In this document: positions 21,766-27,505 of the stretch, piece after piece
How positions within the stretch are numbered: position 1 is the first letter of the stretch
Layout: each line of letters opens with the position of its first letter
DNA from: an archaeon
GTDB taxonomy: Archaea; Iainarchaeota; Iainarchaeia; Iainarchaeales; JANQMZ01
Assembly (NCBI GenBank): GCA_028279805.1
Contig: JANQMZ010000007.1
Coordinates: forward strand, 600,001-632,000
Direction: 5' to 3'
DNA length: 32,000 bases
Made by a program: the position numbers and the translations under genes
The notes under the pieces: model-generated
The model's database searches: none
Told to the model about the DNA's origin: nothing
What the model saw: only the letters and a program-made list of their open reading frames with translations

Positions 21766-24108
21766 TTACCAAAAACCAATTCTTCTGGCGTCATTAATAA
21801 GCCGTTCAATTCTTGTTCTCCTTAAAATTCCTTCAGAGTTTTTTATTCTGTTTAACTCTTTTTCAGGAAATAAAAGCAATGCAGGCGCAGTGACCAAAGT
21901 TTCTTGAGTTATTCCCAAGCTTTCCAGAACTTTCCACCTTTCTTCTAGTGTTCTAATCGAAACATTCCTTCCACGCCTTTTTTCTCTTGAAAAAACAGAC
22001 CTAATTGTTCTGGTTACTGGAATACCAAAACTTTCAGAAATTTTTGGAGTTTCAACAACGCTTTTTTCTTTAGGTTTTCTAGTAGGTTTTTTTCTTCTAG
22101 GACCTTCTGCCGGCGATTCTCTGTGAATTCTTTTTTTAGTTGCTCTAGGTTTTGTTTTGGGCGTTGATTTTGATTCAGGATGTATTTTCTTGTAATGTTC
22201 TATTGCTTGTTCTATTGTTAAATTTTTTGTAAATGCAAGAAATGCAACCGTGGGCAAGTAACTTTCTTCAACACCTTGTTTTTTTGCTTCTCTTAATATT
22301 GTTTTATATCTATCAACTTCGTTTTGGATTGAACGTTTATTAAAAAAAACACTATTGATAATCGTCCCAGCTGGAAGCCCAGCATTTTTTTTCCTTTCTT
22401 CTAAAACTTTATTGGTTATTTCCACATGCCTTTTGAGCGCTTCATCAATACTTGAATATCTTCCATTAAAAACAAATCTAGCAATCGTTAATCCTTTTCT
22501 TTCATTATATTTTTTTGCTTTTCTTAAAATGTCTTCTACCTCAAAAACATTAAATTTTGTTGTCACTCTTCTAATATCAGATTCTTTCAAACCAATGTCT
22601 CCTACTAATAACTCGTATTCCGCTTTAACATGTTGAGCCACATATGTTATGGTTCTTCTTAAAGTTTTAGGATTTGTTTCCTGCGTAATTTCCCTTTTTC
22701 TAATTAATTGTTTCAAGTTTGATGAAACCATCCATTCAAACAAATTGTTTTTATCGCCAAAAACTTTTCGTGCTTGCTGAACACTCATTCCTTCAATTCT
22801 TCTAAAAAGATTGCCAGCGTGTCCCTTACTAGATCTCTTTTCACTCATTATATCTGATAATCTTTTATTCGCAATTCTTACAGCTTCATTTGCCTCTTCT
22901 TTTGTTAAAGGCCTTCCTAATTTTTGTTCCAATCTTTCAATCGGACTTAATTTTCTTTGAGGCTTTTTTCTCCCGCTCTTTTGACTTTTTTTCCTCCGAG
23001 TGTCTCTTTTTATTCTTTCATAAGGTTTAAATCCGGGTCTGCTTTTTTTATATCTTTGAATTGCTGTTTCAATGCCAATCCCCTGTTTAAATGCCAATTC
23101 TGCAACAGCTCTCCAATGCCGTTCATCAACACTGGCTCTAGCTTCTGCTACTATTTCCTTAAGTGTTTGAACATATCTTGGAACTGCTTGTTTGTTTTGC
23201 CCGTCAATAAACACCTTTGAGGAAATTTTGTTGACTATCTCTGCATTAGAATAAACGGAAAGCAGAGGCCCCATAAAAGCGGCATCTCTTGAAATAAACT
23301 GTTCTATTAGATCCTGAATATTTTCATATCTTTTAATTTCAGCTCTAATTCTCTTGTTTCTAACATAAGCATTCATTGCAATTGTTCTTGCGATTTCTTC
23401 TGGTGCAAATTCCTGAGCTTCGCTCAATAACCGTTTGTAATGCTCAATTTCATTTTCAGCAGACCCTTTTTTTTTAAACGCTTTGAAAACCAATGTTTTT
23501 TGCATTTTTTCAATGTCAGGATCTCCTTTTGCCAATTCTCTAACTCTTTGAGTTATTTTTCTATGCTTTTGAATTGCGTCATCAATGCCCGGATAAGTTC
23601 CCCCAAAAACAGAATAGATAATTGTTCCCGTTTGTTTTCCATATTTATGTGCTTTTTCAATTATTTCTTCCACTTCAAAAACATCAAACTTTGTTGTTAC
23701 ACTTTTAATTTGATATTCGCTTAGTCCTAATTCTTCTACCAATAATTCATACTCTGCTTTTACATGTTGAGCTAAACTTGCAACAACTCTTTTCAATTCT
23801 TGTCCTGAATTTTTTGACGAAATTTCTCTTTTTTTTGCCAATTGCGTAATGTTTGAAAATAACATAAATTCAAATAATTCGTTTCCTTGTTCAAAAAGTC
23901 TTTTAGATTCTTTTCTTGTTAAAGAATACATCCTTTCCCTGATTTTTCTAAAATCCCCCGCTATGAAACCACGTGTTCCGATTTTTTCATTGTAAATATC
24001 TGATAATTCTTTGTTTGCTATTCTCGCCGCTTCGTTTGCTTCTTCTCTGGTTAATGTTCTGCCAATTCTTTCTTCCAGCCTTCTAATCGGATTTCTTCTT
24101 TTAACCAT
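21766..24108 (-). CDS. Unknown-family protein, double module (two tandem copies of the ~390-aa paralogous module)
   Basis: 780-aa ORF. Residues 1-~375 and ~376-780 each match the 393- and 395-aa neighbours. Starts 9 nt after the stop of the upstream paralog. Confidence 0.85.
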   Translation of the reverse strand: MVKRRNPIRRLEERIGRTLTREEANEAARIANKELSDIYNEKIGTRGFIAGDFRKIRERMYSLTRKESKRLFEQGNELFEFMLFSNITQLAKKREISSKNSGQELKRVVASLAQHVKAEYELLVEELGLSEYQIKSVTTKFDVFEVEEIIEKAHKYGKQTGTIIYSVFGGTYPGIDDAIQKHRKITQRVRELAKGDPDIEKMQKTLVFKAFKKKGSAENEIEHYKRLLSEAQEFAPEEIARTIAMNAYVRNKRIRAEIKRYENIQDLIEQFISRDAAFMGPLLSVYSNAEIVNKISSKVFIDGQNKQAVPRYVQTLKEIVAEARASVDERHWRAVAELAFKQGIGIETAIQRYKKSRPGFKPYERIKRDTRRKKSQKSGRKKPQRKLSPIERLEQKLGRPLTKEEANEAVRIANKRLSDIMSEKRSSKGHAGNLFRRIEGMSVQQARKVFGDKNNLFEWMVSSNLKQLIRKREITQETNPKTLRRTITYVAQHVKAEYELLVGDIGLKESDIRRVTTKFNVFEVEDILRKAKKYNERKGLTIARFVFNGRYSSIDEALKRHVEITNKVLEERKKNAGLPAGTIINSVFFNKRSIQNEVDRYKTILREAKKQGVEESYLPTVAFLAFTKNLTIEQAIEHYKKIHPESKSTPKTKPRATKKRIHRESPAEGPRRKKPTRKPKEKSVVETPKISESFGIPVTRTIRSVFSREKRRGRNVSIRTLEERWKVLESLGITQETLVTAPALLLFPEKELNRIKNSEGILRRTRIERLINDARRIGFW

Positions 24109-24117
24109 TTTATCAAC

Positions 24118-26249: not shown

Positions 26250-27422
26250 TCAAGCTCTTTTGTTTCCTTTTAACGCGTTTAATAAGCTGTTAAGTTCTCT
26301 TATTCTGTTCCTTTCATTCATTCTTTCAAGAGCCTTTCTTTGCGGTGGAAGCATTAAAAGCAACTCTGTATTTTCAAAAACATTAATTTTCCAGGCTTTC
26401 AATAAACGAAGATTATCCATTAAATTTTTCCTGTCAGACAAGCCCTGCTTTTCAATTCCTGCAATTAAACTTCTTTCAGATCTAGTTAAAATTCTAAGAT
26501 CATAACGTTCCGGCGTTCTATCAAAATCAGTTTTTCCTGTAGCAATTTTTTCTCCAGGAGTTTCTCCCTTTATTCTTCCATGCGGTCTAAAACCAGGATG
26601 CTCGTTTTTGTATTTTTCTAATGCGTTTTCTATTGTTAAATTTCTTTTTAATGCAAGATGTGCCACAGTAACTAAATGGCGTTCATTAATTCCTTTTTCT
26701 TCTGCTTCTTGTAATAATTGTTTATATCGATTAATTTGTTCTTGGGCTGAAGTTTTTCTCAGAAAAGCGTGACTAATAATTGTTCCCGTTGGCAAGCTTT
26801 TGTCTTTTTTTGCTGCTTCCAAAACCTGTTGAGTTATTTGTTTATGCGTTTGAATTGCTTCTTCAATACTTGGATAGACTGCATTCAAAACCGTTGCTGT
26901 AATTGTTCTGGCAACATTCTCATCATATTCTCTTGCTTTTGTCATTATTTCTTCTATTTCAAAAACATCAAATTTTGTTATAGCCGCCTTGACAACGCTC
27001 AGAGTTAATCCTAGTTCTTCTATTAGTATTTCGTATTCTGCTTTGGTGTGTTGTGCCAAATTTGTAACAATTCTTCTAAAACTTTCAGCATTTGTTTTTT
27101 TCGTAATTTCTTTTTTTTTAATTAGTTGCATTATGTTTAGTCTTAGCATTGTTTGAAATGTTTTGTTTGTTGTTCCAAAATGTTTTTTTGATTCTCTTTC
27201 AATTAAACTCGTTATTTTCGCTTTGAATTTTTTGTATATACGATTGACCGCCACTCCTCTAGTCCTAATTTTTTCGTCAAATCTGTCTGATAATTTTCTG
27301 TTTGCTATTCTTACTGCTTCGTTTGCTTCTTCTTTTGTTAGTGTTCGACCAAGTTTTTCTTCTAATCTTTCAATCGAAGGATGTTCTTTTTCCTGTCTTC
27401 TAATTGGCTTTCTTTTAGGCAT
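26250..27422 (-). CDS. Unknown-family protein, single module (paralog P2)
   Basis: The track ORF is trimmed to ATG 27422 (MPKRKPIRRQ...), parallel to the P1 start. The same GTTAAATACT element lies upstream. Confidence 0.85.
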   Translation of the reverse strand: MPKRKPIRRQEKEHPSIERLEEKLGRTLTKEEANEAVRIANRKLSDRFDEKIRTRGVAVNRIYKKFKAKITSLIERESKKHFGTTNKTFQTMLRLNIMQLIKKKEITKKTNAESFRRIVTNLAQHTKAEYEILIEELGLTLSVVKAAITKFDVFEIEEIMTKAREYDENVARTITATVLNAVYPSIEEAIQTHKQITQQVLEAAKKDKSLPTGTIISHAFLRKTSAQEQINRYKQLLQEAEEKGINERHLVTVAHLALKRNLTIENALEKYKNEHPGFRPHGRIKGETPGEKIATGKTDFDRTPERYDLRILTRSERSLIAGIEKQGLSDRKNLMDNLRLLKAWKINVFENTELLLMLPPQRKALERMNERNRIRELNSLLNALKGNKRA

Positions 27423-27505
27423 ATTAAAATTACTCAAAAGCAGTATTTAACAATTGGTTTAATTTAAATTTTTTATGTTCAATTTTTTTAATTGGAGGTA
27501 AAACA

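Follow-up and report, generated by a model that had tools for sequence, protein, structure and literature searches.

The DNA analysed here, 32,000 nucleotides of an archaeon of the Iainarchaeota (the window: positions 600,001 to 632,000, forward strand, of contig JANQMZ010000007.1 in assembly GCA_028279805.1), carries an array of three long paralogous genes for helical-repeat proteins that belong to no named family. All three genes, and all the features of their products given below, lie on the minus strand. Gene A (26250..27422) encodes 390 aa from its ATG and consists of one full module, as does gene B (24118..25299; 393 aa), while gene C (21766..24108; 780 aa) consists of two fused modules, C1 (aa 1-388; 22945-24108) and C2 (aa 389-780; 21766-22944); the products of A, B and C are P0002, P0001 and P0003 of the public protein collection. 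In the list of open reading frames (ORFs) gene A extends over 26250-27437, where an alternative TTG start at 27437 would give 395 aa; the ATG at 27422, chosen in an earlier note on this DNA, yields the 390-aa protein that matches the public record P0002. Enclosed by the array is a gene that is not a member of the paralog family, an extended short-chain dehydrogenase/reductase (SDR) of the NAD-dependent epimerase/dehydratase family (25337..26245, minus strand, 302 aa). The SDR starts 4 nt past the stop of gene A with a TTGAT Shine-Dalgarno-like sequence in front, and gene C starts 9 nt past the stop of gene B with GTTGAT preceding its ATG. The small archaeal genome that the earlier note had supposed is consistent with the 853-kb length of the contig, with an archaeal signal recognition particle RNA at 15106-15382 and with the window's eIF6, the closest named relatives of which, at 45% identity, come from Candidatus Diapherotrites (DPANN). 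Sampling of the lineage is poor, since the best outside match of this eIF6 is just 58% identical.

Paralogy and copy number were read from pairwise BLASTP, in which A and B are 50% identical over 398 columns (E 5e-117) and A matches C in two separate places, residues 3-263 (46%, E 2e-67) and 381-762 (38%, E 3e-79). B likewise matches C twice, the A and B matches on C together spanning residues 3-263 and 381-777; from these double matches it follows that C is two modules fused and that there are four copies at the locus. The DNA of the copies is 61-80% identical over 130-300 nt, in register, and the protein alignment of the four modules has 74 invariant columns. The earlier note had described exactly this, i.e., three minus-strand paralogs with the module present twice in the 780-aa ORF, and in these respects it stands. 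Its module of ~390 aa in four copies was right in the number of copies and too long in the shared part, which comes to ~265 aa, C1 being without the C-terminal domain; the conserved motif blocks that it quoted are essentially right, except that E-S-K-[KR]-x-F and L-P-[TA]-G-x-I-I each occur in three of the four modules. The ORFs are not a product of chance, as an open frame of 780 codons would be expected with a probability of ~1e-26 (calculated from a stop frequency of ~0.075 per codon at ~33% G+C). An independently assembled contig (L007, a Logan contig of run SRR20820740, positions 1-4877) encodes a protein identical to C and also carries genes of the size of the window's GGGPS gene and 273-aa ORF in the same order; it terminates within gene B, as expected if a paralog array breaks short-read assemblies.

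The anatomy of the module was worked out from the four-way alignment, an AlphaFold2 model of A and profile searches, and in this partly model-based description its parts follow one another as a basic tail with a 31-aa motif, a helical head, three repeats, a linker rich in Lys, Arg and Pro, and a C-terminal domain. The model consists of helices, in agreement with the earlier note, which had called the proteins all-helical; its mean predicted local distance difference test score (pLDDT) is 71.7 and its predicted template-modelling score (pTM) 0.47, with pLDDT values of 80-90 over residues 65-280 and of ~80 over residues 319-390. The N-terminal 31-aa motif (A 27285..27377, B 25186-25278, C1 23998-24090, C2 22852-22944) reads [PS]-I-x-R-L-E-x-x-[LI]-G-R-x-L-T-x-x-E-A-N-E-A-x-R-I-A-N-x-x-L-S-D and lies next to a Lys/Arg-rich tail. 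No block of the module is better conserved or under stronger constraint; the motif is modelled in A at a low pLDDT of ~50-57 and was found in these paralogs alone, with no match in the remote relatives described below. The homing-endonuclease-associated repeat PF18780 was considered for this motif and rejected, as its matches (E 0.011 and 0.13, covering 19-32 residues) were below threshold. The helical head follows (A 26925..27194, B 24826-25095, C1 23641-23910, C2 22507-22779), with the sequence elements E-S-K-K-x-F, N-x-x-F-x-x-M-L-x-x-N-I-x-Q-L, A-Q-H-V-K-A-E-Y-E-L-L-V-E-E-L-G-L and F-D-V-F-E-V; the family-wide head motif is A-Q-H-x-K-A-E-Y-x-L-L-x-E-L-G-L, at 27006-27056 in gene A, together with F-D-V-F-E.

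The three helical-hairpin repeats of A occupy 26601..26915 (R1 26805-26915, R2 26691-26789, R3 26601-26678), and the repeat regions of the other modules were placed at 24502-24816 in B, 23317-23631 in C1 and 22183-22494 in C2. The recurring [ST]-[IA]-[EQ]-[EQ]-[AG]-[IL]-x-x-[YH]-[KE] element pointed out in the earlier note does belong to a helical repeat, in which it opens the long helix of a hairpin of 38-43 aa, and the repeat is detectable at the DNA level too (DNA repeat family D6). The Lys/Arg/Pro-rich linker (A 26499..26600, B 24349-24501, C1-C2 junction 22945-23040, C2 22030-22182) is predicted to be disordered, with pLDDT values <50 over residues 283-315 of A, and carries a net charge of +11 to +12 in B and C. 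It leads to a C-terminal helical domain of ~80 aa (A 26253..26498, B 24121-24348, C2 21769-22029), for which five helices are predicted in A at a pLDDT of ~80, and which neither C1 nor the remote relatives have. In its place C1 has ~90 residues (23041-23316) that hold one further repeat, detected as a second domain match at residues 297-360 of C (E 1.2e-7, with profile A2, below), followed by a P-G-F-[KR]-P linker as in A. The proteins A, B and C have no Cys and no hydrophobic stretch of transmembrane or signal strength, the highest Kyte-Doolittle mean over 19 residues being 1.25, which upholds the earlier statement that signal peptides, transmembrane segments and Cys clusters are lacking.

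Remote relatives were sought with a profile (A2) built solely from the four modules of the window, which was run with HMMER against 1.84e9 representative proteins and returned 22 matches, namely the three proteins themselves, 18 remote relatives from archaea and bacteria at E 1.6e-16 to 1e-3, and P0010, a repeat-rich protein of the methyltransferase type that was set aside as spurious. The matches are confined to the head, from profile position ~70-100, and the repeats, up to ~264; window and relatives share the motif of the head and two or more hairpin repeats. The 18 relatives (P0004, i.e., MEK6972550.1, labelled 'MAG: hypothetical protein AABW72_00730 [archaeon]', where MAG stands for metagenome-assembled genome, with P0005-P0009 and P0011-P0022) are just 17-27% identical to the window proteins and range in charge from acidic to basic. 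The head motifs [DN]-x-x-F...N-[MI], H-x-x-A-E-Y-x-L-L-x-x-x-G-x-P-x-S-x-I and F-S-V-F-E-V and the tandem hairpins of the form ARTAALLVFRGRYPSIEEAKARYDAILREAREL are common to both groups, whereas the number of hairpins is 2-10 in tandem in the relatives and three in the window modules (at least four in C1), and the relatives are without the N-terminal motif and the C-terminal domain. The consensus ARTAALLVFRGRYPSIEEAKARYDAILREAREL came from a hidden Markov model (HMM) of the repeat that was iterated on the set, with the window repeats in its training set, and that found 104 instances in 20 proteins; it is followed by a linker of 5-10 aa, often F-G-x-D-x-x-T. Positions 3, 8, 13, 15, 19, 23 and 30 of the repeat are conserved, variation is greatest at its positions 6 and 10 (short helix), and the loop has a conserved Y13 and S15 and no invariant acidic cluster. 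With their own repeats in the training, R1 of A, B and C2 scored E 4e-9 to 8e-12 and R2 scored E 2e-5 to 2e-6; a family profile that includes the window modules (A3) likewise gave E 2e-99 to 8e-51 on the window ORFs, as expected by construction.

The relatives bear 'hypothetical protein' labels alone, and the ten of them that were scanned had no Pfam domain above threshold. A word-indexed search of 5.8e9 proteins with B returned B itself and A alone, the index being insensitive for a family defined by head and repeats, and with profile A3 it returned P0008 and two proteins of similar length (P0028 and P0029) alone. Scans for DNA patterns in GTDB species genomes, JGI metagenomes and IMG/VR gave no confirmed relatives; profile A3 proved too divergent to derive such patterns from. 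The gene contexts of the relatives were in part archaeal (L002, a groundwater MAG, and L008, where genes for ribosomal proteins L1, L10 and P1 adjoin) and in part bacterial (L005 and L009); elsewhere the neighbours were AlaRS and a PDDEXK protein (L001) or LysW/LysX (L006). No conserved partner gene was found near the remote relatives; an all-against-all BLAST of the unannotated neighbours showed just the second of two tandem paralogs in L008 (2951-4471 and 4551-5855; 506 and 434 aa), a pair that indicates that tandem duplication recurs in the head-plus-repeat family. Genes for nucleotide-sugar or glycosyl metabolism were noticed near several of the relatives, which may be chance: NTP_transferase, GlmS, PGM/PMM and GlmU-like genes in L002 (9152-20270), a GT1 gene directly upstream and a glucosamine isomerase gene downstream in L009 (6171-11706), and an epimerase gene 4 kb off in L005 (15097-16260). 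P0005 (~400-501) and P0006 (~620-730) have an extra C-terminal helical domain in common (e.g., F-D-F-K-D-G-M-Q-E-A-A-L-V-A-L-E-K-L) that has no Pfam match and that, judged by eye alone, recalls sigma-70 region 2.

The earlier note could place the proteins in no named family, and scans of A, B and C with Pfam, NCBIfam, PHROGs and PADLOC were in keeping with this, with nothing significant found (best PADLOC E 0.0057; best PHROGs E 0.0009, to a family of unknown function). PDB sequence searches with profiles A2, A3 and A4 gave noise and one weak match to NEQ131 (below), and Foldseek searches of the module-A model against PDB and BFVD and of a P0004 model against PDB gave none at E <=0.001; the models are limited, however, by pTM values of 0.47 and 0.44 (the latter from a single sequence) and by alignment depths of 4 and 1. 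A confident match to a characterised family, which the earlier note had named as the outcome that would count against it, thus did not arise in the libraries searched, and the scans showed no enzyme or known domain, in line with its remark that no catalytic motif could be seen.

The nearest repeat class by profile comparison is the tetratricopeptide repeat (TPR) of the 42-residue type, below significance. When profile A3 was aligned by hhalign with a KLC-type 42-residue TPR, the target consensus being drawn up by hand, the score was 24.3 over 102 columns (P 0.0045, probability 7.8%); other targets likewise drawn up by hand gave 19.1 for CTPR3 and at most 13.2 for PPR (13.2), TALE (8.9), SEL1, HEAT and ANK, where 20 shuffled controls reached 18.0 or less. 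Both the window repeat and the KLC-type TPR (TPR_10 PF13374, TPR_12 PF13424) are two-helix hairpins with a period of ~38-43 aa, and in both the sequence runs as G-x-Y-...-E-A-x-x-x-Y-x-x-A-L-x-x-A-...-[FL]-G-x-D-x-x-T; the hhalign alignment, itself below significance, keeps its register over 2.5 repeats. Unlike in TPR, the two helices of the window repeat differ in length and have an additional x-S-x N-cap insertion between them. Three of the relatives (P0007, P0009 and P0012) reach 15-19.6 bits with TPR_10/TPR_12, for which the Pfam cut-offs are 27.5 and 30.1, and the window proteins had no Pfam TPR match at E up to 1. No natural TPR protein appeared among the PDB matches that Foldseek gave for the module-A or the P0004 model, which is weak evidence at a pTM of 0.44-0.47. 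The proteins are therefore described as a new family of alpha-helical hairpin repeats that are TPR-like in sequence pattern; no clan was assigned. The TPR scores lie under every curated threshold.

The all-helical look of the proteins, with a recurring element and Arg/Lys-rich linkers, had led the earlier note to suggest a nucleic-acid-binding scaffold, and a specific form of this idea is that the repeats would bind nucleic acids in the modular manner of TALE/BurrH, mTERF or PPR proteins, wrapping DNA or RNA with loop and outward positions that read the target and Lys/Arg-rich tails and linkers that help. In its favour, A, B and C have isoelectric points (pI) of ~10 and net charges of +26, +31 and +65, focused in the first 100 aa, in the linkers and in the C-terminal domain. 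This charge is weak evidence, since the proteins of the genome are generally basic (with a median pI of 9.5 over 34 window ORFs), the net charge of the repeat cores is just +1 to +2 in A and B, and the pI values of the remote relatives run from 5.7 to 10.1. With relatives of such varied pI and near-neutral cores, the repeat that all members share is not by its own nature a binder of polyanions, and basic charge as an argument for nucleic-acid binding is weakened. The repeat of TALE proteins runs from a short helix through a loop into a long helix, and the window repeat has the same order of parts, as it does in comparison with BurrH and designed toroids (PDB 3ugm, 4cja, 4yxx). In the Foldseek list of the module-A model, designed left-handed alpha/alpha toroids stand first by E-value, with TALE/BurrH close behind (BurrH 4cja at a probability of 0.47, TALE 3ugm at 0.44) and mTERF far down (3n7q, rank 32, E 7.8, probability 0.10); in that of the P0004 model, designed helical repeat proteins and toroid 4yxx stand first, 4yxx with the highest probability. 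All of these top matches are below significance, however, with E values of at least 0.35 and query-normalised TM-scores of ~0.2 or lower.

Membership in the particular families concerned was considered in turn. The window repeat is unlike that of TALE in its length (38-43 aa versus 33-35), in being without the hypervariable loop residue pair, and in a charge that is not conserved across the family; TAL effector-like membership was rejected on an hhalign score of 8.9, Foldseek E values of 0.9-1.2 and the position of its variable residues, 6 and 10, on the short helix. By eye, the C-terminal domain reads mTERF-like in its L-x-x-x-G-[LI]-[ST]-x-x-x-[IL]-...-P-x-L-L pattern, more fully L-x-x-[WL]-G-[LI]-[ST]-x-x-x-[IL]-x-x-x-P-A-L-L, as does the head in E-L-G-L-x-x-x-x-I, and mTERF (PF02536) was nevertheless rejected, with no Pfam match at E up to 10 and no mTERF chain among the PDB sequence matches. 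Profile A3 also gave a weak match, 69 residues long (E 0.012), to NEQ131, a subunit of the C3PO of N. equitans. NeC3PO is an RNA/DNA-binding helical protein the structures of which have been described, with Glu82, Glu85, Asp117 and Glu121 as catalytic residues (PMC5100593). Membership in Translin/C3PO, the fold of which has seven helices, was rejected, as just these 69 residues match, Pfam Translin does not, and the acidic quartet is not conserved. The hhalign scores of TALE and PPR are at the level of the shuffled controls, the Pfam families mTERF, PPR, TAL_effector and Translin have no match at E up to 1-10, and three repeats per module would be few for an array that reads sequence, so that a nucleic-acid reader is considered unlikely, though it keeps an appreciable chance. 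The bolder proposal that these are a new class of left-handed helix-loop-helix hairpins of 38-43 aa for modular nucleic-acid recognition, analogous to TALE and mTERF and found in archaea and bacteria, with four modules that read different RNA or DNA targets through variable positions in the helix face and the loop, is distinctly doubtful.

The history of the array can be followed by comparison with the closest related contig (L010, GCA_964532265.1), which has GGGPS, SDR, S19e, a dsDNA-binding protein, an ORF in the position of L39e, L31e and eIF6 in the order and orientation of the window. The L010 proteins are 72% (GGGPS), 50% over the full length (SDR), 59% (S19e) and 56% (eIF6) identical to those of the window, GGGPS and SDR being separated by 26 bp and SDR and S19e by 346 bp, and no member of the paralog family is present at this syntenic locus. 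In a more distant Diapherotrites contig (L011), an SDR ortholog (41%) is located one gene from GGGPS (55%). As the SDR stands beside GGGPS in both contigs without paralogs, it is the resident gene, and the paralogs appear from the gene order to have been inserted around it, A (with a YCII gene) on one side and B and C on the other. The earlier note had this the other way round, with the SDR inserted between copies 1 and 2. Its identification of the gene itself is secure, given the match to Pfam Epimerase (PF01370, E 1.8e-28, 100 bits against a cut-off of 20.9) and a translation that shows G-S-S-G-E-I-G for the N-terminal G-x-x-G-x-x-G and Y-E-K-S-K for the catalytic Y-x-x-x-K, as in extended SDRs; as to its substrate class, no NCBIfam equivalog attains its cut-off. 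GGGPS (PcrB family) and an extended SDR are thus neighbours in three DPANN genomes (window 20993-21763, plus strand, and 25337-26245, minus strand; L010 1441-3176; L011 18123-20635); in L010 they are adjacent and convergent, and in L011 a single gene separates them, a conserved pairing that may indicate a lipid-related role for the SDR. A YCII-related gene (27506-27841, plus strand; E 1.3e-4, just under the Pfam cut-off) lies between gene A and S19e and is absent from the 346-bp spacer of L010, which means that the interval gained more than one gene.

Since the SDR is resident, its position between A and B says little about function. The shared cluster would find an explanation if the paralogs were regulatory or scaffold subunits of the SDR pathway, in nucleotide-sugar or lipid modification, and the 4-nt distance between A and the SDR, which are probably co-transcribed to judge from their spacing, and the sugar-nucleotide and glycosyl genes near the relatives in L002, L009 and L005 could be cited for it. 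The pairing is not conserved, however, the SDR being found beside GGGPS without a family member in L010 and L011; other relatives adjoin the unrelated AlaRS, PDDEXK, LysW/LysX and ribosomal protein genes mentioned above, and genes of sugar metabolism are common, so that their proximity may be fortuitous. Such a partnership is therefore regarded as highly improbable.

The single operon proposed in the earlier note is likewise doubtful, because the same TATA-like element is found in front of both A and B. A promoter-like element, GTTAAATACTGCTTTTGAGT, is located upstream of A (27432..27451, minus strand), with a TTAAATA box that ends 21 nt before the ATG, and a copy, GTTAAATACTATTTTTGAGT, upstream of B (25310..25329, minus strand), the box ending 21-22 nt before the ATG in the two genes. 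The pattern GTTAAATACT-R-Y-TTTTGAGT has two matches in the window, compared with 0.07 expected, and the two copies are identical at 18/20 positions, compared with 65% at coding third positions. Other first genes of the window commonly have a TATA-like box at -24 to -31 as well. In archaeal promoters such a distance from TATA box to ATG fits leaderless transcripts, which would fit A and B here. As A and B each have their own element and the SDR and C follow 4 and 9 nt downstream, two transcription units, A+SDR and B+C, are likely.

The copies have diverged quickly. By the NG86 method, A and B differ by 0.355 nonsynonymous (dN) and 0.571 synonymous (dS) substitutions per site, i.e., a dN/dS of 0.62, and the other pairs have values of 0.38-0.59; the ratio is lowest over the N-terminal motif (~0.25), runs from 0.5 to 1.2 further on, and is near or >1 in two regions, one about repeat 1 and one where repeat 3 ends and the linker begins. 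Where their residues are identical, A and B share the codon in 78% of cases, which implies that protein divergence was fast relative to silent change. With an overall dN/dS <1 and intact frames, the copies are not decaying pseudogenes. The earlier note's picture of a locally amplified, fast-diverging and lineage-specific family is supported by these NG86 ratios (0.38-0.62) and by the absence of the family from the syntenic locus of the nearest available relative.

The same observations would be accounted for if the genes were cargo of a selfish or conflict element, horizontally acquired and diversified in an arms race, with a part in defence, counter-defence or the host interaction of an episymbiotic DPANN cell. 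Tandem amplification with a dN/dS of 0.4-0.6, the absence of the paralogs from the related locus, the gain of the YCII gene in the same SDR-S19e segment relative to L010, and the patchy occurrence of the family in archaea and bacteria with no conserved neighbours all agree with such an origin. Against this, no integrase, transposase, flanking repeat or tRNA target was found beside the array within the window, and the G+C of the array (0.30-0.33) lies inside the range of the window (0.28-0.40). No significant match to PADLOC or PHROGs, no matching IMG/VR contig and no BFVD fold match was obtained, and a signal peptide or transmembrane segment for placement at the cell surface is lacking. A conflict element is thus thought quite unlikely as the source of the array.

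The explanation preferred here, which is given a little better than an even chance, is that the products are non-enzymatic alpha-helical hairpin-repeat scaffolds for binding, with a constrained N-terminal anchor on a common partner and a diversifying surface formed by the repeats and the C-terminal domain. The array would then be a lineage-specific set of tandemly amplified genes for soluble proteins of the alpha-solenoid type, copies of which would have been inserted on both sides of the resident SDR adjoining GGGPS and would then have diverged quickly under relaxed or diversifying selection. The basic tail and the 31-aa motif may serve as the common anchor, folding on binding to one shared partner, and the head with its three repeats as the recognition surface, in which core positions are kept and outward-facing ones vary; the disordered linker would join these repeats to a private C-terminal helical domain. 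Expression would be driven from two duplicated promoters of the TATA type, one for A and the SDR and the other for B and C. By analogy with TPR proteins, a nucleic acid is a somewhat less likely ligand than a protein or peptide; some unspecific affinity for nucleic acids may come in addition from the basic tails.

Several points weigh against this explanation. The resemblance to TPR is not significant, given the 7.8% probability against targets drawn up by hand and Pfam bits under 27.5 and 30.1, and the top matches of Foldseek, themselves non-significant, were designed left-handed alpha/alpha toroids and TALE/BurrH, not natural TPR proteins; either the geometry between repeats differs from that of TPR or the models are poor at that level. 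The dS between A and B varies from 0.18 to 2.1 along the genes, which hints at patchy gene conversion, and the NG86 ratios may be overestimated in an AT-rich, codon-biased genome. The lineage-specificity rests on one related contig of 12 kb and on the failure to find homologs in a poorly sampled lineage, and the gene contexts point to no ligand or partner.

The array represents a genuine orphan family of repeat proteins with clear limits, expanded in tandem in this lineage specifically. Provided that the description is correct, it is a new family of alpha-helical repeats, one that has no name in any library and is extremely sparse in public data, with 18 remote representatives among 1.84 billion proteins; it combines a conserved anchor with a diversifying surface in textbook fashion and was amplified in one lineage of DPANN. 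Given how small DPANN genomes are, four copies that fill 4.7 kb of an 853-kb contig suggest a real selective use, possibly the recognition of partners in a host-dependent lifestyle or the handling of a specific set of RNAs or proteins. The repeat geometry would be a new one once a structure is solved, and the repeats, should they read nucleic acids, would be of interest for engineering. At present it is another well-described hypothetical family among the many in DPANN genomes.

Some further features of the window lie apart from the array. An ORF of 160 aa at 10784-11266 (minus strand), just past a cluster of tRNA-Lys, tRNA-Lys and tRNA-Phe genes (10394-10690), consists almost wholly of 11-12-aa repeats of the form KKAAPKRRRRK, encoded by DNA tandem arrays at 10787-11260; with a net charge of +104 and a pI of 12, its product looks, from sequence, like a basic protein of the protamine or histone-H1-tail type. 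Two ribosomal proteins have long extensions of low complexity with abundant Lys, Glu and Pro, namely S19e (27927-28601, plus strand; 224 aa versus 178 in L010), in which the tail coincides with short DNA tandem repeats at 28433-28555, and L31e (29190-29723, plus strand; 177 aa versus 158 in L010). Finally, two ORFs of 82 and 273 aa without a Pfam match are found at 19829-20905 (plus strand), in the kilobase of lowest G+C in the window (0.28), where L010 has instead a gene of the metallo-beta-lactamase fold; as the gene differs at this position, it is another variable spot beside GGGPS.

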